A stretch of 64,000 bases of DNA from Nannocystis sp. ILAH1 (GTDB taxonomy: Bacteria > Myxococcota_A > Polyangia > Nannocystales > Nannocystaceae): NCBI RefSeq assembly GCF_026626585.1, contig NZ_JAPNKD010000014.1, positions 285,207-349,206 of the forward strand. Reading direction: 5' to 3'. A program made the translations under genes and the position numbers. The notes beneath the pieces were generated by a model that was given only the letters and a program-made list of their open reading frames with translations, made no database searches and was not told the origin of the DNA. Positions 31,807 to 40,451 of the stretch are shown in pieces. The first letter of the stretch is position 1. Each line of letters begins with the position of its first letter.

Positions 31807-33033
31807 TCACTCGCGCGCGGGCAGGGAGTCGAGCAGCTCTTGCAGCGCGCGGGGCAGGGCGGTGAAGCGGACCACCGCGCGGCCCGGGCCGGCGGCGACG
31901 ACCTTGGCGTAGGCGTCGACGCCGGGAAGGGCGGCGAGCACGAGCTTGAGATCGGCGCGCAACGGCAGCGGGGCGGCGACCCGCAGCTCGGCGTTGTGGC
32001 GCTCGTCGTGGGCCACGAGCAGCGCCGGGAACTCCTGGCCGCCGGTGTCCTTGCCCTCGAGCGCGGTGAACACGAGCGGCTGCGGCTCGGCCAGGACCCG
32101 CCACGCGGCGGCCTCTTCGATCATGTGGATGGCGAACGGGCCGTCGACGCCGGTGACGTCGTGGATCGTGATCGGCTCGCGCACGCCCTTGGGCCGGACC
32201 TCGAAGCAGCCGCGGGTGCGGAGGCGGTCGCCGAGGGCCCGTGCGGCCGACTCGGAGATCAGGACCTGGCCGCCGACGGTGTAGCTCTCGATGCGCGACG
32301 TCAGGTTGACGTGGCGGCCGACCACGCCGTACTTGGCGCGGCGGTTCGAGCCGATGTTGCCGACCACGACCTCGCCGGTGTGGACGCCGATGCCCATCTC
32401 GAGCGCGGGCAGGCCGTGCTCGGCCAGCGCGGCGTTGACGCGGCCCATCGCCCGCTGCATGGCGATCGCACAGGCGACCGCGCGCTCGGGGTGGTCCTCC
32501 TGCGGCACCGGGGCGCCGAACACCGCGAGGATGGCGTCGCCGATGAACTCGTTGATCGAGCCGCGGTACTCGCCGATCACGTCGGCCATGGCGCCGAGGT
32601 AGATGTTGAGGATCGCCACCACCTGCTCGGGGCCCAGGCCCTCGCAGAGGGTCGAGAAGCCGCGCAGGTCGGAGATCAGGATCGTCAGGGTGCGCCGCTC
32701 GCCGCCGAGCTGGCGGCCCTCCGGCGAGGCGAGCAACGTATTGACGACCTCGTCGGTGACGTGGCGGCCGAACACCTGGCGGATGAAGGTGTTGCGCAGC
32801 TCGAGCTCGACCACCAGCGCCTCGACTTGCTCGATCTTGACTGCCAGCTGCTCCTCGATCTCGTTGGCGTGCTCGAGCGTCGAGTCGTGCAGCAGCACGA
32901 GGTCGTCGTGCTCGGCCTGCAGGGTGGCGACGGCGGCCATGAACTCGGCGCGCGCGGCCGGGTCGGCCAGGAGCTCGGCCGCGGCGTCGGGGTCGGCGAG
33001 GGCTCGCCGCCAGCGCGGGTCATCCGTGAGCAT
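31807..33033 (-). CDS. Class III adenylate/guanylate cyclase with N-terminal coiled-coil stalk
   Basis: It has the CHD core (RRTLTILISDLRGFS, FIGDAILAVFG, IGVHTGEVVVGNIGS, RAKYGVVGRHVNLTSRIE) and an N-terminal heptad-rich helix. Confidence 0.85.
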   Translation of the reverse strand: MLTDDPRWRRALADPDAAAELLADPAARAEFMAAVATLQAEHDDLVLLHDSTLEHANEIEEQLAVKIEQVEALVVELELRNTFIRQVFGRHVTDEVVNTLLASPEGRQLGGERRTLTILISDLRGFSTLCEGLGPEQVVAILNIYLGAMADVIGEYRGSINEFIGDAILAVFGAPVPQEDHPERAVACAIAMQRAMGRVNAALAEHGLPALEMGIGVHTGEVVVGNIGSNRRAKYGVVGRHVNLTSRIESYTVGGQVLISESAARALGDRLRTRGCFEVRPKGVREPITIHDVTGVDGPFAIHMIEEAAAWRVLAEPQPLVFTALEGKDTGGQEFPALLVAHDERHNAELRVAAPLPLRADLKLVLAALPGVDAYAKVVAAGPGRAVVRFTALPRALQELLDSLPARE

Positions 33034-33045
33034 GCGGCGGCCGGC

Positions 33046-33420
33046 TCAGTCGAGGGCGATGACGATCGTCGGCAGGAACTTCTTGAGGTTGGGCAGCGAC
33101 TTGCCCTGCCACGGGATGGTCGACGAGCCGTGGACCTTGATCTCGGTCTCGCCCTTCTTGCGCGCGGCGATGGCGAACTTGTAGAGCATGTTGATGCCCG
33201 AGCTGTTGAGGAACTGCAGCTCGGTCATGCGCAGGGCGAGCGCGGGGTTGGCCAGCAGGACGCGGTCGAGCAGGTCCTCGATCGGCTTGTACTCGCTGGT
33301 GCTGAGGCGGAGCACGCCCTCGAAGTGGACCGTGCGCGCGGGCGCGTCGAACCACACGCGATAGCCGGGGCCTTTGATGTCGGTGTCCGACCCGGAGGGT
33401 CGCGTAGTTGTGTCCGTCAT
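33046..33420 (-). CDS. DUF1987 (SiaC-like) partner-switch protein
   Basis: The product is 124 aa. It matches the SiaC pattern, with LQFLNSSGINMLYKF versus SiaC LLYLNTSSIKAMMDIL. Its ATG overlaps the upstream stop (ATGA) and it lies 12 nt before the cyclase start. Confidence 0.7.
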   Translation of the reverse strand: MTDTTTRPSGSDTDIKGPGYRVWFDAPARTVHFEGVLRLSTSEYKPIEDLLDRVLLANPALALRMTELQFLNSSGINMLYKFAIAARKKGETEIKVHGSSTIPWQGKSLPNLKKFLPTIVIALD

Positions 33421-33980
33421 GACGATTTCACCTGTAGCCGGGCGGCGGTCTTGAGGAGCGCGTTGTCAGGATTGCCAGGGGCGGGGTCGAAGCGCCAGCC
33501 GAGCCGGGCCTTGTAGTCCGACAGCATGGTGAGAAAGCCCAGGCCCGAGGTCGTGAGTTCGGGGTTGGCGGCGTTCTCCTCGACCCGCTGCATCAGGAGC
33601 TCGGCGGGATCGCCGTCGAGCAGCTCGGCGAACTTGATACGCAGGCCGTCGACCGCGTCGCCGCAGACCTGGTTGCTGACGACGACCACGAACTCGCCCG
33701 CCTCGACGCCCGCGTCGATGACGACGGTGCCGCCGGCGCAGAACTTGACCGCGTTCTCGATCAGCTCGTTGAGCACGTAGCCGACGCTGCCGACGAAGTC
33801 GCGCCGCTCGGCCTCCTCGGTGAGCCCGCCCTCGCCGACGTCGGCGAAGTACTCGGCGAAGAAGTCGGCCGCCACGCTGCACTGGTTCCACTTGACCGGG
33901 AACGCCCCGGGGTAAAACGTCAGCATGACGCGCGGTCCAGCGTCGGTGGGCTCTTTGTACTCGCCGATGATGCCGTCCAT
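33417..33980 (-). CDS. RsbW/SiaB-like GHKL serine protein kinase
   Basis: It has a GHKL N-box (VLNELIENAVKF) and G-box (TSGLGFL). The product is 187 aa with a GGAG SD. Confidence 0.65.
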   Translation of the reverse strand: MDGIIGEYKEPTDAGPRVMLTFYPGAFPVKWNQCSVAADFFAEYFADVGEGGLTEEAERRDFVGSVGYVLNELIENAVKFCAGGTVVIDAGVEAGEFVVVVSNQVCGDAVDGLRIKFAELLDGDPAELLMQRVEENAANPELTTSGLGFLTMLSDYKARLGWRFDPAPGNPDNALLKTAARLQVKSS

Positions 33981-34003: not shown

Positions 34004-36364
34004 TCAGCGCCGCTTGATCACCACCGTCGTGATGTCGTCGAAGACCTTCTGCGCGCCGATGAAGCGCATGACGTCGTCGACGATCGCCTGCTTGATCTCC
34101 GCCGCCGGCCGCTCGTGGACCCGGCGCACCACCTCGCACAGGCGATCGATGCCGTACAGCTCGCCGTGGATGTCCTCCGCCTCGGTTATGCCGTCAGTGT
34201 ACAGGACGACGACATCGCCCGGCGACAGGCGCAGCTCGGTGCGGGCGATGAACGCGGCGATGTCGACCTCGAGCCCCACCGGCATGCCGAGGTCGACCGT
34301 GTCGATGCGCTCGATCGAGCCGCCCCGCCGGACCACCACCGCCTCCTCGTGCTGTCCGGTGAGGCGGAGCACGCCCTGCGCGTAGTCGAGGAGCACCAGC
34401 GTCGCGGTGCGGTCGAGGCCGACGCGCTGGATGTTCTGATAGAGGACCTTGTTGACGATGTTGAGGAAGCGCTCCGCGTCGCGCTCCTCGGCGGCCTGCA
34501 GGGTGCGCACGGCCGTCTGGATCATCAGCATCAGCACGCCGCTCTCGAGGCCGTGGCCGGTGACGTCGCCGATGCCGATCTTGACGCCGTCGCCGGCGCG
34601 CAGGACGTCGTAGTAGTCGCCGCCGACCTCGTCCGCGGGCCGCATGTAGCCGGCGACGTCCAGGCCCTCGAGCTCGGCCAGCTCGCGCTCTTGCGGCAGC
34701 ACCATGAGCTGCAGCCGGCGGGCGACGTCGAGCTCGGCGCCGAGGCGCAGGTTCTCCTGCTTGAGCCGCTCGTTGAGCGCCATGATCTCGCGGGAGGCCC
34801 GCTGCAGCTCGGCGGTGCGCTGCTCGACCAGCCGCTCGAGATCGTGCGTATACGCGCGGATCTCGGCGGCCATCTGGTTGAAGGCGCGGCCGAGCGCGCC
34901 GAACTCGTCGTCGCTGCGCACGTCGACCCGCACGTCGTAGTCCTTCTGCGCGATCTTGCCGGCGCCCGCGGCGAGGTCGACCAGCGCGCCGGTCATGCGT
35001 CGCGAGACCAGGAGGATCCCGAACATCACGACCGCGAGCGCGACCAGAGTGATGACGATCTGGCTGATGAGGATCCCGCGGCTGCTGGCGGCGATGGTGT
35101 CCTGCGCCTTGTGCAGCGAGGCGTAGATCTCGGCGGCAGGCACGACGAAGCCGAGGGTCCAGCGCTCCGGCACGATGTCGGTCGAACCCGACCAGACGTT
35201 GAACGGATCGAGCCGCTTGAGCACGACGACGTAGTCCTTGCCGCCGATCGCTACCGGGTCGCGGTAGTCGACGGTATCGCCGCTGGGCAGCGCGAGCGCC
35301 TGGATCGCCGGGTCGCGCGACTGGTGCAGGAACTGTTGGAAGATGTCGACGCCGGCACCCGACGAGCCGCTGGCCTGCTGCAGGCCGAGGATCTCCTGGC
35401 CGTCGGCGTTGACGGCGAACACGTTGCCGTTCTCCTGGGCGAGGAAGGCGAAGCCCGAGCCGGCGAGCTCGAGGTCCTGGACGTAGCGGATCAATTGACC
35501 GAGGGTGACGTCGACGCCGACGGCCCCGGCGAAGCGCGCGCGCGAGGCGTCCCACAGCGGCTGGAACATGGTCATGATGGCCCCGCTGCCGCCCGCGTCG
35601 GTGTACGGCGCGGTGCCGGTGACCTGCGCCGCCGGGTCGCGCATGCGCGCGGGATCGGCGAGCCAGCGCCGCCAGCCGTCGACGATGCCGGGGAAGTAGA
35701 AGCTCCAGAACGGGCTCTTGTTGTGGCCGGGATAGAGCTGGTCGGCGTGGCCCGCAGCGTCGGCGTAAGGGGCGATCCGCAGGTACTCGGCGCCCTCCGG
35801 GCCGATGAAGTACATGGCCTGCTTCTCGGCCCCGTACTGCAGCAGCGCGGGCAGCAGCAGGTCGAGCAGGGCGGTCTGCTCGACTGCGGCGCGGACCTCG
35901 GGCTTGATGTCCCGAAGGCCAGGTTGCTTCGGGTCGGCCGGCGCGTGCAGGTAGCCCCACACTGCCACAGCCGACGGCTCACCGGCCTCGGTCTGCGACC
36001 AGTCGCCGCGCGGGTCATAGACGAGGGCGTCGCGCAGCGGCCCGGCAGCAGCGGCGGCGGCGGTCAGCGGCGCAAGGTCGGCCTGCCGATCGATGAGCGT
36101 CTGGGTGACTGCAGCGAGCACGCCGAGCTCGGCCCGCGCCCGCCCGCGCAGGAATTCGACGCGCTGCGCGGTGTCCTCGATGTGGTTGGTGAGGTACTCG
36201 CGGCTGGCCCGCTCGAGGCCCTTGCGGATCTCCTCCGATGCGTCGCCGCCGAGCACGCGGATGCCCTTCAGCGAGGCCAGCGCCGCGAGCGTCAGCCCGA
36301 TCACCAGCCCGACCCCGGCAACGAGGACGAACTTGGTGCGGAACCTTGAGCCCGTGGTGGCCAT
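34004..36364 (-). CDS. Membrane-bound sensor phosphatase: periplasmic sensor domain - HAMP - PP2C/SpoIIE (SiaA-like architecture)
   Basis: Two TM helices bracket a roughly 300 aa periplasmic domain. A HAMP domain (DDEFGALGRAFNQMAAEIR) precedes a C-terminal PP2C/SpoIIE domain (GDYYDV...GDVTGHG...LYTDGITEA). Confidence 0.8.
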   Translation of the reverse strand: MATTGSRFRTKFVLVAGVGLVIGLTLAALASLKGIRVLGGDASEEIRKGLERASREYLTNHIEDTAQRVEFLRGRARAELGVLAAVTQTLIDRQADLAPLTAAAAAAGPLRDALVYDPRGDWSQTEAGEPSAVAVWGYLHAPADPKQPGLRDIKPEVRAAVEQTALLDLLLPALLQYGAEKQAMYFIGPEGAEYLRIAPYADAAGHADQLYPGHNKSPFWSFYFPGIVDGWRRWLADPARMRDPAAQVTGTAPYTDAGGSGAIMTMFQPLWDASRARFAGAVGVDVTLGQLIRYVQDLELAGSGFAFLAQENGNVFAVNADGQEILGLQQASGSSGAGVDIFQQFLHQSRDPAIQALALPSGDTVDYRDPVAIGGKDYVVVLKRLDPFNVWSGSTDIVPERWTLGFVVPAAEIYASLHKAQDTIAASSRGILISQIVITLVALAVVMFGILLVSRRMTGALVDLAAGAGKIAQKDYDVRVDVRSDDEFGALGRAFNQMAAEIRAYTHDLERLVEQRTAELQRASREIMALNERLKQENLRLGAELDVARRLQLMVLPQERELAELEGLDVAGYMRPADEVGGDYYDVLRAGDGVKIGIGDVTGHGLESGVLMLMIQTAVRTLQAAEERDAERFLNIVNKVLYQNIQRVGLDRTATLVLLDYAQGVLRLTGQHEEAVVVRRGGSIERIDTVDLGMPVGLEVDIAAFIARTELRLSPGDVVVLYTDGITEAEDIHGELYGIDRLCEVVRRVHERPAAEIKQAIVDDVMRFIGAQKVFDDITTVVIKRR

Positions 36365-36384: not shown

Positions 36385-37557
36385 TCAGCGCTCCGGTTTG
36401 CGGCCGGAGGCGACGTAGATCGGCCAGGTGGCGAAGCCGCGGCGGCTGCGGATCGCGTAGACGTGATCGCGGAAGCCCATGCGCAGGCGCTCGACCACCT
36501 CCGGCGGCTGCTGCGTGGCGGTCGACAGCTCGCCGGTGACGTACTCCTCCCAGCTCTCGATCACCCGCGCGAAGTCGTCGATCGCGGTGTTGTTGTTGGT
36601 GATCGGGATCTGCTCCATGCGCACGTCCTCGAAGCCCATGTCGGTCAGCAGCGAGAACATCTTGGGCCCGAAGTTCATGTCCATGCCGAGGCTCTGGGCG
36701 ATCTTCACGGCGTGCTGGTAGGTCCACGCGACCGACTCGTGGCGCGGGTAGCCGTAGTTGTGCACCGTCATCTCGTTGGTCAGGTAGACCCGACCGCCGG
36801 GTTTACAGATCCGCACCAGCTCGCGCAAGATGCTCGACGGATCGTTGAAGATCTGCAGCGCCAGGCGCGAGGTGACGAAGTCGAAGCTGTTCGACGGCAA
36901 GAACAGGTGGGTCGCGTCGCCGAACTGATACTCGATGTCGGTGATGCCGAACTCGCGGGCCATCTGCTGCGCGTATTGAAGGAAGGGCCGCGAGTGGTCG
37001 ACGCCGACGATGTACGCGGGCTCGAACTCCTTGTAGACGAGCACCGCGAAGTCGCCGATCCCGCAGCAGATGTCGGCGATCCGCATGCGCTTGCCGAGGC
37101 CGTGGCGGCGCAGCAGCTCGCGCTCGTGCGACCACACGATGTTGGTCTGGGTGCGCAGGACCGGCACGAGCTGGTCGTTCTCGATGACGCCCTGGCCGGG
37201 GTAAAACGCCTTGTCGTACTGCTCGACGATGGTGTTGCCGAACTGCGCGCCGAGGAAGCCGAAGCGCAGCGGCGCCCACGGGACGACGCTCGAGACGACG
37301 AGCTTGAGCTTGAGGCTCGGGTGGCGCTCGGCGCAGGCGGCGATGAAGCGCGCGAGCTCGAGGAAGCCGGTGTGGTTGAGGTAACGCAGGCGCTTGAAGT
37401 TGAGGTAGAGGACGCCGCGCACGGCGTCGGCGGCGTGGTCGAGGCGCGCCCGCACCGGCGCGAACGCCTCGGGGCCGGCGGGCCGCAGCGTCCCCTCGAG
37501 CGCGACCTCCTGGTCGTTCTCGCTGAAGCGGATCGAAAACGGTTGCTCGTTCTCCAT
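36385..37557 (-). CDS. Fusion protein: N-terminal DUF1987/SiaC-like domain + class I SAM-dependent methyltransferase
   Basis: The N-terminal 110 aa show the DUF1987-like pattern (FSIRFSENDQEVALEG...LYLNFKRLRYLNHTGFLEL). MTase motifs I (IADICCGIGDFA), post-I (VGVDHS) and III (CKPGGRVYL) follow. Confidence 0.65.
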   Translation of the reverse strand: MENEQPFSIRFSENDQEVALEGTLRPAGPEAFAPVRARLDHAADAVRGVLYLNFKRLRYLNHTGFLELARFIAACAERHPSLKLKLVVSSVVPWAPLRFGFLGAQFGNTIVEQYDKAFYPGQGVIENDQLVPVLRTQTNIVWSHERELLRRHGLGKRMRIADICCGIGDFAVLVYKEFEPAYIVGVDHSRPFLQYAQQMAREFGITDIEYQFGDATHLFLPSNSFDFVTSRLALQIFNDPSSILRELVRICKPGGRVYLTNEMTVHNYGYPRHESVAWTYQHAVKIAQSLGMDMNFGPKMFSLLTDMGFEDVRMEQIPITNNNTAIDDFARVIESWEEYVTGELSTATQQPPEVVERLRMGFRDHVYAIRSRRGFATWPIYVASGRKPER

Positions 37558-37569
37558 ACCCAGCTCGGC

Positions 37570-38076
37570 TCACTCGTGCGGGACAGTAAGGACGATGACG
37601 CCGGCGCCGTCGCCCTCGCGCAGCGTGAGCTCGACGCCGTGGAGCGCGACCAATTCGAGCAGCCCGACCTCGGCCGGCGGACGCAGGATCATCGACTCGA
37701 ACTCGGCCTCGTAGCGCGCGCGCGCGTCCGCCGGCGCGACCCGCCCGAGGTCGTCGCGCAGCCGCTGCGCGAGCGCCTCGTCGGTCGGTATCGTCAGCTC
37801 GGCGATCACGTGCTCGTCCGTGCGCCCGACCTCGACCACGATCTCGCCCTCGCTCGGCCGGGCGCGGAACACGTACTCGAGCACCTCGTTGAGATAGGTC
37901 GAGAGGCGCGTGGTCAGCTGCTCGGGATCGAAGCGATCGGAGGCGACGAAGCGCGCGATGTAATCGGCCAGCCGCTGGCAGTGCGTCCAGCTGTCATATA
38001 GCCCGCGGACGCTGATCCGGAGGGTGAGGATCGGGCTCGGGCCGGGAGGTGAGGGGGGCGCGAGGTCGGAGGTCAT
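37570..38076 (-). CDS. Small GHKL/RsbW-like protein (tentative second SiaB-like kinase)
   Basis: The 168 aa product has an N-box-like LNEVLEYVFR, then a beta-rich segment. It is the first gene of the operon. The family call is tentative. Confidence 0.4.
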   Translation of the reverse strand: MTSDLAPPSPPGPSPILTLRISVRGLYDSWTHCQRLADYIARFVASDRFDPEQLTTRLSTYLNEVLEYVFRARPSEGEIVVEVGRTDEHVIAELTIPTDEALAQRLRDDLGRVAPADARARYEAEFESMILRPPAEVGLLELVALHGVELTLREGDGAGVIVLTVPHE

Positions 38077-38345: not shown

Positions 38346-40451
38346 ATGACAACGACCAAGACGCTCGCCATCAAAGTGTTTTACGGCGATCAGCTCGTCG
38401 ATACGCAGACGCTGACGCAAGACGTTATCAAGATCGGAAAACTGAAGAGTAGCCACATCTGTCTGGATGACGAGGCCGTGGCCCGCATGCACGCCGTGAT
38501 CGAGGTGTCCGGCGAGGAGGTGCGGGTGATCGATCTCGGGAGCGCGGCGGGCACCGTGCTCAACGGCCAGCGGATCGACAAGAACGCGGTGCTGCACGAC
38601 GGCGACGCCTTGAACTTCGGGCCGTACCGCCTCGAGGTCGGCTTCGCCAAGCAGCAGGTCGCGGCTGCGCCGGCGCCGGCGCAGGTGGCCGCGCCGGTGG
38701 CCGTGGCGGCGGCCGCGGTCGCGGCGGCTCCGCTCGCTGCGGCGCCGATGGCGACGCGGGCCCCGATCCAGATCGACCTCAGCGAGGTCGAGGTTCAGAG
38801 CGGCTCGCGGGTGGCCGAGGTCGTGGCGATGTACGGCTCGACGGTGCTCGACGTGCAGCACGTCGGCCAGCTGAAGAACCGCAAGTCGCAGGCGCCCATT
38901 TTCCTCGCCATCGGCGGCGTGATGCTGGTCGCCGGCGTGGGCGTGTTCTTCAGCGACGTGAACCAGGACTGGGCCGGCTACGGCAAGAAGGTCCAGGACT
39001 CGATCGAGCAGGGCACGCCGCGCCCGACCCCGCCCGGAAACGGCCTGGCGGCGATCGGCATGCTGCTGGCGATCGCGGGCCTCGTGCCGTTCAGCATGGG
39101 CCTCATCCGCACCGGCGACTACGTCAACAAGAACTTCACGATCGGCGAGGGCCACGGCGCGTCGTTCCACGTGCCGCCCGCCGGCCTGCCCGAGCCCAAC
39201 GGCTTCCCGCTGGTCCGCGGCAGCGACCACGAGTTCGCGCTCAACTTCACGCAGAACATGAGCGGCGAGGTCACCTTCGACGGCCAGACGATCACGCTGC
39301 AGCAGCTGGTCGCGACCGGCCGCGCGGGCTCGCAGGGCTCGTCGTTCAGCTTCCCGCTGCCGCCCGGAGCGACGGCGCGGGTCAAGTACCAGGACGTCAC
39401 CTTCTACGTGAACTCGGTCGCGCCGGGCGCGGTGATCAAGGGCGGCAGCGAGACCGACAAGCCGTTCTGGATCTACAACGGCGCGTCGTTCGTGGTCATC
39501 GGCAGCTTGCTGGTGCTCACGCACCTGATCCCCAACGAGGCCGGCAACCTCAGCCTCGACGAGATGATGGAAGAGAACCGCTTCGTCGGTTACCTCAACC
39601 AGCCCGACAAGCCGCCGGAGGAGGAGGAGCCGCCGCCGGAGGACATGGAGAACTCCGACGACGAGGCCGGCGGCACCGGTCAGCGCCACAAGGGCGAGGA
39701 GGGCAAGATGGGCAAGCCCACCTCGAAGAGCAAGTCGGGCCTCTACGCCATGAAGGGCCCCAAGGACGCCATCCCGCAGATGGCCCGTAACTTCGACCCC
39801 GACATGGCCGCGCGCCAGGCCGGCATCCTCGGGGTGATGAGCGCCGAGAGCGGCCACTTCCTCGCCTCGCCGTACGGCGGCGCGTTCGCGGTCGGCAACG
39901 ACGACGCGGACGTGTGGGGCGGCCTCACCGGCACGGAGGTCGGCGAGGCGTACGGCGTCGGCGGCCTCGGCCTGGTCGGCACCGGCCGCGGCGGCGGTGG
40001 CACCGGCGAGGGCACGATCGGCCTCGGCAACACGGGCCTCATCGGCAAGGGCGGCGGCGGCGGCACGGGCTCCGGCTACGGCCGTGGCGCTGGCGCCGGC
40101 TTCGGCGGCCGCGGCACTCGCGTCCCGACGGTCCGTCAGGCCAAGGCCGAGGTCCAGGGCGCGCTCGACAAGGACATCATCCGCCGCATCGTCCGCGCGC
40201 ACATCAACGAGGTCCGCTACTGCTACAACCAGGCCCTCGCCCGCGACCCCAACGCCAAGGGCCGCGTCGCCGTCCAGTTCACCATCGGCGGCACCGGCAA
40301 GGTGCCCACCGCGGTGGTCCAGGAGAGCACGATGAAGGACCCGGCGGTCGGCTCCTGCATCGCCCAGGCGGTCAAGCGCTGGACCTTCCCCAAGCCGGAG
40401 GGCGGCGGCTCGGTCATCGTCTCGTACCCGTTCGTCCTCGAGCCGGGTTGA
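38346..40451 (+). CDS. FHA-domain protein with AgmX/PglI-type C-terminal domain (myxobacterial)
   Basis: The N-terminal FHA domain (IKIGKLKSSHICLDDEAVARMHAVIE...VIDLGSAAGTVLNGQRI) is followed by a TM region, a Gly-rich segment and a C-terminal domain (IIRRIVRAHINEVRYCYNQAL...VQFTIGGTGKV...SYPFVLEP). Confidence 0.75.
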   Translation: MTTTKTLAIKVFYGDQLVDTQTLTQDVIKIGKLKSSHICLDDEAVARMHAVIEVSGEEVRVIDLGSAAGTVLNGQRIDKNAVLHDGDALNFGPYRLEVGFAKQQVAAAPAPAQVAAPVAVAAAAVAAAPLAAAPMATRAPIQIDLSEVEVQSGSRVAEVVAMYGSTVLDVQHVGQLKNRKSQAPIFLAIGGVMLVAGVGVFFSDVNQDWAGYGKKVQDSIEQGTPRPTPPGNGLAAIGMLLAIAGLVPFSMGLIRTGDYVNKNFTIGEGHGASFHVPPAGLPEPNGFPLVRGSDHEFALNFTQNMSGEVTFDGQTITLQQLVATGRAGSQGSSFSFPLPPGATARVKYQDVTFYVNSVAPGAVIKGGSETDKPFWIYNGASFVVIGSLLVLTHLIPNEAGNLSLDEMMEENRFVGYLNQPDKPPEEEEPPPEDMENSDDEAGGTGQRHKGEEGKMGKPTSKSKSGLYAMKGPKDAIPQMARNFDPDMAARQAGILGVMSAESGHFLASPYGGAFAVGNDDADVWGGLTGTEVGEAYGVGGLGLVGTGRGGGGTGEGTIGLGNTGLIGKGGGGGTGSGYGRGAGAGFGGRGTRVPTVRQAKAEVQGALDKDIIRRIVRAHINEVRYCYNQALARDPNAKGRVAVQFTIGGTGKVPTAVVQESTMKDPAVGSCIAQAVKRWTFPKPEGGGSVIVSYPFVLEPG

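Follow-up and report, generated by a model that had tools for sequence, protein, structure and literature searches.

A predicted pseudokinase and a SiaC-like pseudosubstrate domain may tie a methyltransferase to a partner-switch cassette in Nannocystis

Introduction

Can a partner-switching system control a methyltransferase, and can it do so through a kinase-like protein and an antagonist-like domain that both appear to have lost the chemistry of phosphorylation? This question is raised by two adjacent minus-strand genes in a stretch of 64,000 nucleotides (nt; hereafter the window) of Nannocystis sp. ILAH1 (contig NZ_JAPNKD010000014.1, positions 285,207 to 349,206). One encodes a kinase-like protein of 168 amino acids (aa; 37570..38076, ATG start), and the other encodes a protein of 390 aa (36385..37557, ATG start) in which a STAS/SiaC-like domain is fused to an S-adenosylmethionine (SAM)-dependent methyltransferase. 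Partner switches are best known as regulators of sigma factors and, lately, of diguanylate cyclases (SiaABCD, HsbA/HsbD, BgrV/BgrR). In the SiaABCD system of Pseudomonas aeruginosa, SiaA is a PP2C phosphatase, SiaB a kinase, SiaC a phosphoprotein of the DUF1987/PF09345 family and SiaD a diguanylate cyclase. The original prediction for this locus, made from the sequence alone, proposed a kinase-controlled DUF1987 domain acting in cis on the attached enzyme. Our analysis keeps the anatomy of that proposal and points to a corrected mechanism, in which a predicted pseudokinase/pseudosubstrate pair would tie the methyltransferase to a partner-switch cassette.

Results

Both open reading frames named in the original prediction were found in place on the minus strand, as were the two strings quoted from them: LYLNFKRLRYLNHTGFLEL in the 390-aa protein (residues 50-68) and LNEVLEYVFR in the 168-aa protein (residues 62-71). 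Because they have many conserved homologs, 912 database relatives for the 390-aa protein (the best 120 of 912 nearly all full length) and 49 for the 168-aa protein, they are real genes rather than chance reading frames of a genome with 70% guanine-cytosine (GC) content. The two genes are separated by 12 nt, and over the 390-aa gene the window shares 99% identity with Nannocystis pusilla Na p29.

Residues 1-116 of the 390-aa protein (37210..37557) are assigned to no Pfam family. Pairwise BLASTP gave no match between them and a stand-alone protein of 124 aa encoded 3 kb downstream in the same operon; the likeness needs profiles to be seen. The NCBIfam slr1659_superfam model matched the 390-aa protein at 5e-11 (42.9 bits, or 46.6 bits for the domain alone) and 33/33 fused domains (best E 8.5e-15), in each case under its 100-bit cut-off. 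Using hhalign, the fused domain could be aligned with 28 stand-alone slr1659-like proteins at 98.5% (E 3.7e-15, 108/116 columns), and G22, R25, N61 and W94 are common to the fused domain and the slr1659 superfamily. Pfam PF09345 (SiaC/DUF1987) matched neither the window protein nor any of the 33 fused domains at E up to 10, and Pfam STAS_2 matched 5/33 weakly. A sequence-profile search of the PDB returned STAS antagonists at marginal E values (0.017-0.6), which are of the right kind but insufficient alone.

An AlphaFold2 model of the fused domain, with a predicted local distance difference test score (pLDDT) of 92.6 and a predicted template modeling score (pTM) of 0.85, has the topology β-β-α-β-α-β-α-β, which contains the β-β-α-β-α-β-α arrangement of the SiaC/STAS fold. 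In a Foldseek search of the PDB with this model, the top seven matches were all SiaC chains, with template modeling (TM) scores of up to 0.68. Hidden Markov model (HMM) scanning and structure prediction against SiaC, the check proposed at the outset, thus found a SiaC/STAS fold and not a generic methyltransferase cap, which the fold searches rule out for residues 1-116. The fused domain is a SiaC/STAS-fold paralogue of the downstream stand-alone antagonist. The DUF1987-like N-terminus of the original prediction holds as to fold and local motif, but not as to sequence family, which is slr1659-like, with the Pfam SiaC/DUF1987 model matching 0/33.

To follow individual residues, 80 species-level loci were gathered, all of them through the methyltransferase; the four small proteins of each locus were identified by HMMs, and key columns were counted. 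The unique sets comprised 79 proteins of the 168-aa family, 72 fused domains, 59-60 slr1658-like proteins and 59 stand-alone slr1659-like proteins. Where the slr1659 superfamily has an invariant L-N-S-S-G-I-N, the window protein has LNHTGFL. According to the alignments and the census, the loop and the start of helix α2 carry Asn61-His62-Thr63-Gly64 (37366..37377), the counterpart of Asn67-Thr68-Ser69 of SiaC and of the LNSSG of the stand-alone slr1659-like proteins. Position 62, directly after the conserved Asn61, aligns with Ser58 of SpoIIAA and with Thr68 of SiaC, the acceptor among the described SiaC residues (PMC8457831). It is His in the window protein and N48/H14/F7/Y1/S1/A1 among the 72 fused domains, versus Ser in 59/59 stand-alone proteins. 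The next position tells the same story: V24/T18/I12/A9 and others, with Ser in 0/72, against Ser in 58/59 stand-alone proteins. The fused domain is therefore predicted to be non-phosphorylatable at the canonical acceptor position. The Thr that had been pointed out in this loop does lie in the right loop, but Thr63 sits one residue past the acceptor, corresponds to Ser69 of SiaC and is Thr in 18/72 only. Other residues of STAS-like domains, G22, R25, N61, S90 and W94 (compare SiaC W95), are kept in both the fused and the stand-alone sets.

The 168-aa protein is likewise assigned to no Pfam family. It matched the NCBIfam slr1658_superfam model at 34.8 bits (E 1.1e-8), under the 100-bit cut-off, and BLASTP related it to a downstream kinase of 187 aa at E 3e-4 only. 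Profile comparison of its family with slr1658-like proteins by hhalign gave 97.2% (E 2.9e-11, 146 columns), and W30, C33, E64, E67 and G138 are common to the two families. Matches in a PDB sequence-profile search (SiaB 0.043, RsbW 0.56) were marginal, of the right kind but insufficient alone. The protein has a Bergerat-type α/β fold of the SiaB/SpoIIAB kind, the absence of which had been named as grounds for giving up the original prediction, and is a paralogue of the slr1658-like kinase.

Its ATP-binding residues are another matter. In the degenerate N-box LNEVLEYVFR (residues 62-71, 37864..37893, from sequence and the column census), Asn63, Glu64 and Glu67 are kept, and the Mg-binding Asn is replaced by Tyr68. 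At position 68, Asn occurs in 0/79 members of the 168-aa family (T/V/A/L/I/Y instead), compared with 59/59 slr1658-like proteins, whose N-box NELIENAVKF aligns with the classical histidine-kinase N-box. The G1-equivalent position 96, which was assigned by alignment and not from a nucleotide-bound structure, is hydrophobic in 79/79 with Asn in 0/79, versus N55/H4 in the slr1658-like set. The lid motif E-x-N-A, held by 59, 58 and 57 of 60 slr1658-like proteins, is lost in the 168-aa family, and so is the first Gly of the G2 box (59/60 slr1658-like), while the second Gly is retained in 60/79. What both families keep are the kinase-like residues N63-E64-x-x-E67 and W30-x-H-C33, with E64 and E67 each at 79/79 in the 168-aa family. 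The GHKL-like protein with an N-box-like motif was thus rightly recognized from its fold and motif string, but the Mg-binding Asn is a Tyr, and the protein is predicted to be a kinase-dead pseudokinase that has lost its Mg-ATP residues.

The W-x-H/Q-C motif lies in the first long helix and is near-invariant in both families (W 74/79 and C 76/79 in the pseudokinases; W 57/59 and C 51/59 in the slr1658-like kinases). Its conserved Cys might have a redox or structural role or belong to an interface.

Considering the two proteins together, the loss of the N-box, G1 and lid residues on one side and of the acceptor on the other indicates that kinase chemistry and acceptor were lost together. By their residues, the 168-aa protein and the fused domain are a catalytically degenerate duplicate of the neighboring kinase/antagonist pair. 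Because they fail the tests that define the known families, namely the model cut-offs, the N-box/G1/G2 motifs and an acceptor Ser/Thr, the pair is best filed as a diverged, degenerate branch and not as a working member of the SiaB/SiaC or slr1658/slr1659 families. A kinase-controlled DUF1987 domain in cis is therefore unsupported, since the key residues are missing in both partners (N-box Asn 0/79, G1 Asn 0/79, lid lost, acceptor Ser 1/72).

The enzyme portion is, by its sequence, an intact class I SAM methyltransferase, as originally proposed. Residues 117-390 (36385..37209) comprise a conserved cap and the methyltransferase, with the class I region at about residues 128-265. Pfam Methyltransf_11 (3.8e-19, residues 162-258), Ubie_methyltran (1.4e-16) and the related Methyltransf_25 and Methyltransf_31 models all exceed their cut-offs, at 1e-16 to 4e-19. 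The SAM motifs ADICCGIGDF (motif I), VDHS, GDA, FDFV..R and KPGGRVYLTNE are invariant or near-invariant in 36 homologs, down to 48% identity. Strong conservation extends to the linker/cap (YD..FYPGQ, LRTQT..W..ER) and to the C-terminal 125 residues, which implies a specific methyltransferase substrate. Solved relatives in the PDB, LahSB (6.4e-17) and phosphoethanolamine N-methyltransferases, align only with the Rossmann core. All NCBIfam equivalogs scored the 390-aa protein far under their cut-offs; the UbiE/quinone methyltransferase identity given in some records can be set aside, with the UbiE model at 69.8 against a cut-off of 216.

The pair heads a series of six minus-strand genes that run head to tail from 38076 down to 31807, in a window of about 70% GC. 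The next gene encodes a SiaA-like dCache-HAMP-PP2C (SpoIIE-type) sensor phosphatase of 786 aa (34004..36364, with the start corrected to the ATG at 36364), which matched Pfam SpoIIE (1.5e-39), HAMP (4.3e-13) and dCache_1 (2e-6), and NCBIfam SiaA at 1.4e-33, under its cut-off. It is followed by the slr1658-superfamily protein of 187 aa (33417..33980), predicted to be the active Ser kinase of the cassette, which scored over the NCBIfam slr1658_superfam cut-off (4.5e-42, 143.6 bits) and matched the SiaB family at 3.8e-5. In the slr1658-like family, the N-box Asn, the G1-equivalent Asn and the G2 GLG are invariant or nearly so. Overlapping the kinase gene by 4 nt is that of the stand-alone, SiaC-like slr1659-superfamily antagonist of 124 aa (33046..33420), likewise over its NCBIfam cut-off (1.3e-36, 125.2 bits) and carrying the LNSSG acceptor motif that is near-invariant in its family. 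A PP2C phosphatase, a Ser kinase and a phosphorylatable STAS-type antagonist, the gene set of a partner switch, are thus present together in this downstream trio. The last gene of the local operon encodes a class III adenylate/guanylate cyclase of 408 aa (31807..33033; Pfam Guanylate_cyc 5.1e-26). A sigma-70 promoter scan gave no match, and terminator-like sites occurred at chance frequency.

The arrangement is widely conserved. In contigs from one genome per species in GTDB (about 186,000 species genomes), 486 stretches encoded a relative, and a relative was also found in 120 plasmid records, mostly from Sinorhizobium and Rhizobium. The 168-like gene lies directly 5' of the methyltransferase gene in 82/84 loci, and in 42/67 evaluable loci the end of the former overlaps the start of the latter by 1 or 4 nt. 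The order is 168-like gene, methyltransferase gene, dCache-HAMP-PP2C gene (nearly all of the 84 loci), slr1658-like gene and slr1659-like gene. It is held in Nannocystis, Sorangium and Polyangium; in Chthoniobacter; in Rhodanobacteraceae and Competibacteraceae; and in Rhizobium, Sinorhizobium, Mesorhizobium, Roseibium, Devosia, Inquilinus and Parvibaculum. This five-gene order spans Myxococcota, Alpha- and Gammaproteobacteria and Verrucomicrobiota, and the downstream trio is conserved together with the upstream pair in about 80 loci. The cyclase is variable: a class III cyclase lies beside the cassette in 23/84 loci, a GGDEF-EAL protein in 10/84 and neither (within 6 kb) in 51/84. Among loci found through the methyltransferase, at any rate, the enzyme that stays constant in the cassette is thus the methyltransferase with its pseudokinase.

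Sorangium has a single protein of 305 aa that joins an slr1658-like half to an slr1659-like half, and both halves exceed the NCBIfam cut-offs (L001, 10697-11614 (+), with the same position in the other Sorangium/Polyangium loci). By the Rosetta-stone argument, this suggests that the slr1658/slr1659-type pair works as a physical complex.

Contact between the degenerate partners was approached through sequence variation. Position 68 of the 168-aa family and position 62 of the fused domain, which would be apposed in a canonical kinase:antagonist complex, co-vary (bulky Y/F/W/L/M with H/F/Y and T/V/I/A with N; 18/4/1/29), a pattern confounded by phylogeny that offers a weak hint of direct contact. 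Mirror-tree and partial correlation analysis was applied to six cassette components in 39 non-redundant loci, and its outcome is governed mainly by alignment length and phylogeny. The strongest partial correlation among the components (partial r 0.56) links the methyltransferase core to the periplasmic dCache region of the phosphatase; it is probably an alignment-length artefact, although it would be of interest if the ligand of the sensor were related to the substrate of the methyltransferase.

Discussion

On the reading that we prefer, the pair would act by protein-protein binding, independently of phosphorylation. The pseudokinase would clamp the antagonist-like domain as SiaB clamps SiaC and would thereby set methyltransferase activity, with the free antagonist as competitor; we put the probability of this binding-only arrangement at roughly 0.5. 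Its extension to a full competitive partner switch is more tentative. A periplasmic signal sensed by the dCache domain of the PP2C phosphatase would lead to dephosphorylation of the free antagonist, which would then compete for the pseudokinase against the non-phosphorylatable fused copy and thereby free the enzyme; the intact kinase would re-phosphorylate the free antagonist and reset the system. One paralogue would bind and the other phosphorylate, a division of labor known from the mycobacterial SigF system, and the regulated output would be a methyltransferase bearing its own decoy antagonist domain. That a dCache signal turns methylation on and off in this way, through one phosphatase and a separate kinase, is a possibility that we rate as less likely than not.

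Several observations weigh against this interpretation. The catalytic-base Glu64 and Glu67 are kept in 79/79 pseudokinases, so that nucleotide might still be bound in a non-canonical way. In the fused domain, the conserved Ser89 and Ser90 might serve as acceptors instead, and Thr63, present in Nannocystis and in 18/72 overall, would allow lineage-specific phosphorylation. Moreover, the 168-aa protein and the fused domain do not stand out as partners (partial r 0.10) in the mirror-tree analysis of the 39 loci, in which alignment length and phylogeny dominate. Subject to the same confounding, the partial correlation is highest for the fused domain when paired with the intact kinase (0.29) and for the 168-aa protein when paired with the methyltransferase core (0.27).

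Because the best mirror-tree partner of the fused domain is the intact kinase, one alternative is kept as a serious rival, although we consider it unlikely. The 187-aa slr1658-like kinase would dock on the fused domain in a long-lived complex that governs the methyltransferase or keeps the kinase sequestered; the free antagonist, once dephosphorylated, would compete for the kinase, and the 168-aa protein would bind the methyltransferase core or heterodimerize with the kinase, as RsbW3 does with RsbW1. Besides the two correlations just given, it can draw on the fact that an acceptor-less substrate mimic is a classic kinase trap, on the ability of RsbW paralogues to heterodimerize (PMC7693655), and on the W-x-H-C...A-D-Y/F helix common to both kinase-like families. 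However, these correlations are confounded by alignment length and phylogeny, and the tight translational coupling is that of the 168-like gene with the methyltransferase gene. The joint loss of kinase residues and acceptor is also most simply explained if the 168-aa protein and the fused domain are each other's partners, as the co-variation of positions 68 and 62 hints.

It is also improbable that no switching occurs at all, with the fused domain and the 168-aa protein serving as fixed structural subunits of a constitutive methyltransferase, or with the methyltransferase modifying the signaling proteins in a CheR-like adaptation. All catalytic and acceptor features needed for a reversible switch are gone, STAS domains without a switching role are known from SulP transporters and MlaB, and the correlation between the methyltransferase core and dCache (0.56) is the highest in the cassette. 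Nevertheless, the five-gene order, kept across distant groups with overlapping stop and start codons, argues for one functional unit; the residues on the interaction face of the switching paralogues are retained, and the 0.56 correlation is probably an artefact of length or noise.

Finally, that the 168-aa protein is an active RsbW/SiaB-type Ser/Thr kinase, phosphorylating Thr63 and switching the attached methyltransferase in cis in the manner of SiaB/SiaC/SiaD, is very improbable: the folds suit a kinase and its substrate, the neighboring gene encodes a PP2C phosphatase, Nannocystis does have Thr63 and the invariant Glu64 is the counterpart of the catalytic base of SiaB, Glu61 (PMC7647112), but the N-box Asn and the G1-equivalent Asn are each missing in 79/79, the lid motif is lost, the acceptor position holds His, Asn or Phe (Ser 1/72), Thr63 comes one residue late (Thr 18/72), and an intact kinase/acceptor pair already exists within the same operon. 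A sigma factor as target was rejected, with no sigma gene near the operon.

Among known systems, SiaB/SiaC come nearest to the pair in fold and local motif. Unlike SiaABCD, however, it lacks a Pfam SiaC match, the ATP-binding residues and a Thr/Ser acceptor; its SiaC-like domain is fused to the enzyme rather than acting in trans, the enzyme is a SAM methyltransferase rather than a GGDEF cyclase, and a second, intact kinase/antagonist pair accompanies it. The closest sequence families for both proteins are the slr1658 and slr1659 superfamilies (NCBIfam NF047703 and NF047705), true members of which lie 3 kb downstream in the same operon. By comparison with these, both proteins fall far under the cut-offs (34.8 and 42.9-46.6 versus 100 bits), one of them is fused to a methyltransferase, and the family motifs are lost: ENAVKF, the E-x-N-A lid and SGLG in the 168-aa protein, and LNSSG in the fused domain. 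According to two reports, Synechocystis Slr1658 is the only studied member of these superfamilies, its signaling chain is open, and disruption of slr1658 deregulated pgr5 about 1000-fold (PMC7555055, PMC6525291, citing Zer et al. 2018).

The mycobacterial SigF system (UsfX/RsbW1, RsbW2, RsbW3, RsfA/RsfB) provides a precedent for split binder and kinase roles. In M. smegmatis, RsbW1 acts as an anti-sigma factor without kinase activity, RsbW2 is purely a kinase and keeps its N, G1 and G2 motifs, and RsbW3 is a heterodimerizing paralogue (PMC7693655). The target there is a sigma factor, whereas no sigma gene lies nearby here and the presumed target is the antagonist-like domain fused to the enzyme. 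The Bacillus proteins SpoIIAB/SpoIIAA and RsbW/RsbV, to which sequence likeness is marginal (E 0.05-0.6), differ in being active kinases and phosphorylatable antagonists with sigma-factor targets. STAS-fold domains attached in cis occur in SulP/SLC26 transporters, Rv1364c, RsbR and YtvA, so that a non-phosphorylated STAS domain joined to a functional module is an established design. Full-text literature searches turned up no account of the cassette, or of a methyltransferase joined to a STAS/SiaC-like domain, with or without a dedicated pseudokinase gene.

If this interpretation is true, SAM methyltransferases would be a new output class for partner-switching systems, and the locus would exemplify a new use of a pseudokinase/pseudosubstrate pair, a duplicated pair without chemistry or acceptor, one member of which is welded to an enzyme. 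The cassette, present in 486 of about 186,000 species genomes, among them rhizobial symbiosis-associated replicons, Sorangium and Nannocystis, offers a concrete route toward the function of the slr1658/slr1659 regulators, an open question in cyanobacteria, and a natural test case for the evolution of pseudokinase/pseudosubstrate pairs from active ones.

Related architectures and neighboring genes

The profile of the fused domain matched 224 cluster representatives among 1.84 billion, including stand-alone antagonists, kinase-antagonist fusions and tandem-domain proteins. P0278 (1259 aa) contains 11 matching stretches. Architectures are also unusual in P0262, P0264, P0266 and P0279 (about 233 aa), several with two tandem copies of the domain; the tandem-domain P0262 matches Pfam STAS and, weakly (2.6e-5), Pfam SiaC PF09345. 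In P0348 (372 aa), the domain precedes a weak Haem_oxygenas_2 match ("iron-containing redox enzyme"), so that fusion to an enzyme is perhaps not unique to methyltransferases.

Public records label the cassette genes "hypothetical", "ATP-binding protein", "class I SAM-dependent methyltransferase" or, wrongly, "UbiE". On plasmid pRCCGE532c of Rhizobium sp. CCGE532 (L085, 5474-5980), the 168-like gene itself is labeled "ubiquinone biosynthesis methyltransferase UbiE", apparently a spill-over from its neighbor. Immediately upstream of this gene, and in the same orientation, is a GGDEF-EAL gene, with HD-GYP and curli genes further upstream.

Variants of the cassette were seen within Myxococcota. 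In three Nannocystis metagenome-assembled genomes (L009-L011), the slr1658-like, slr1659-like and cyclase genes follow straight after the methyltransferase gene, without a dCache-HAMP-PP2C gene, and a shorter PP2C match (about 280-310 aa) lies upstream on the opposite strand. Beside this short PP2C, L010 has a weak second slr1658/slr1659-like pair and L009 a weak slr1658-like match only. In Sorangium/Polyangium, the fused slr1658/slr1659-like gene is followed by genes for a 329-aa SpoIIE protein, a weakly slr1658-like protein of 189 aa, a weakly slr1659-like protein of 136 aa and a PAS-GAF-STAS protein.

SiaC docks on the stalk of SiaD. Residues of about 23-85 of the window's cyclase weakly match (phmmer E about 5e-5) the N-terminus of SpoIIE/PP2C proteins of 335-355 aa that are encoded divergently to the cassette in several alphaproteobacteria, for example at L043 4458-5465 (-) and L046 4255-5322 (-). 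This likeness may reflect a shared docking helix for the free slr1659-like antagonist or coiled-coil similarity only.

The divergent neighbor of the operon in the window (38346-40451 (+)) encodes a protein of 701 aa that has an FHA domain at its N-terminus (2e-16) and, after it, a long region rich in Gly and Pro. As FHA domains recognize phospho-Thr, it is conceivable that this neighbor is tied to the adjoining Ser/Thr phospho-signaling operon.

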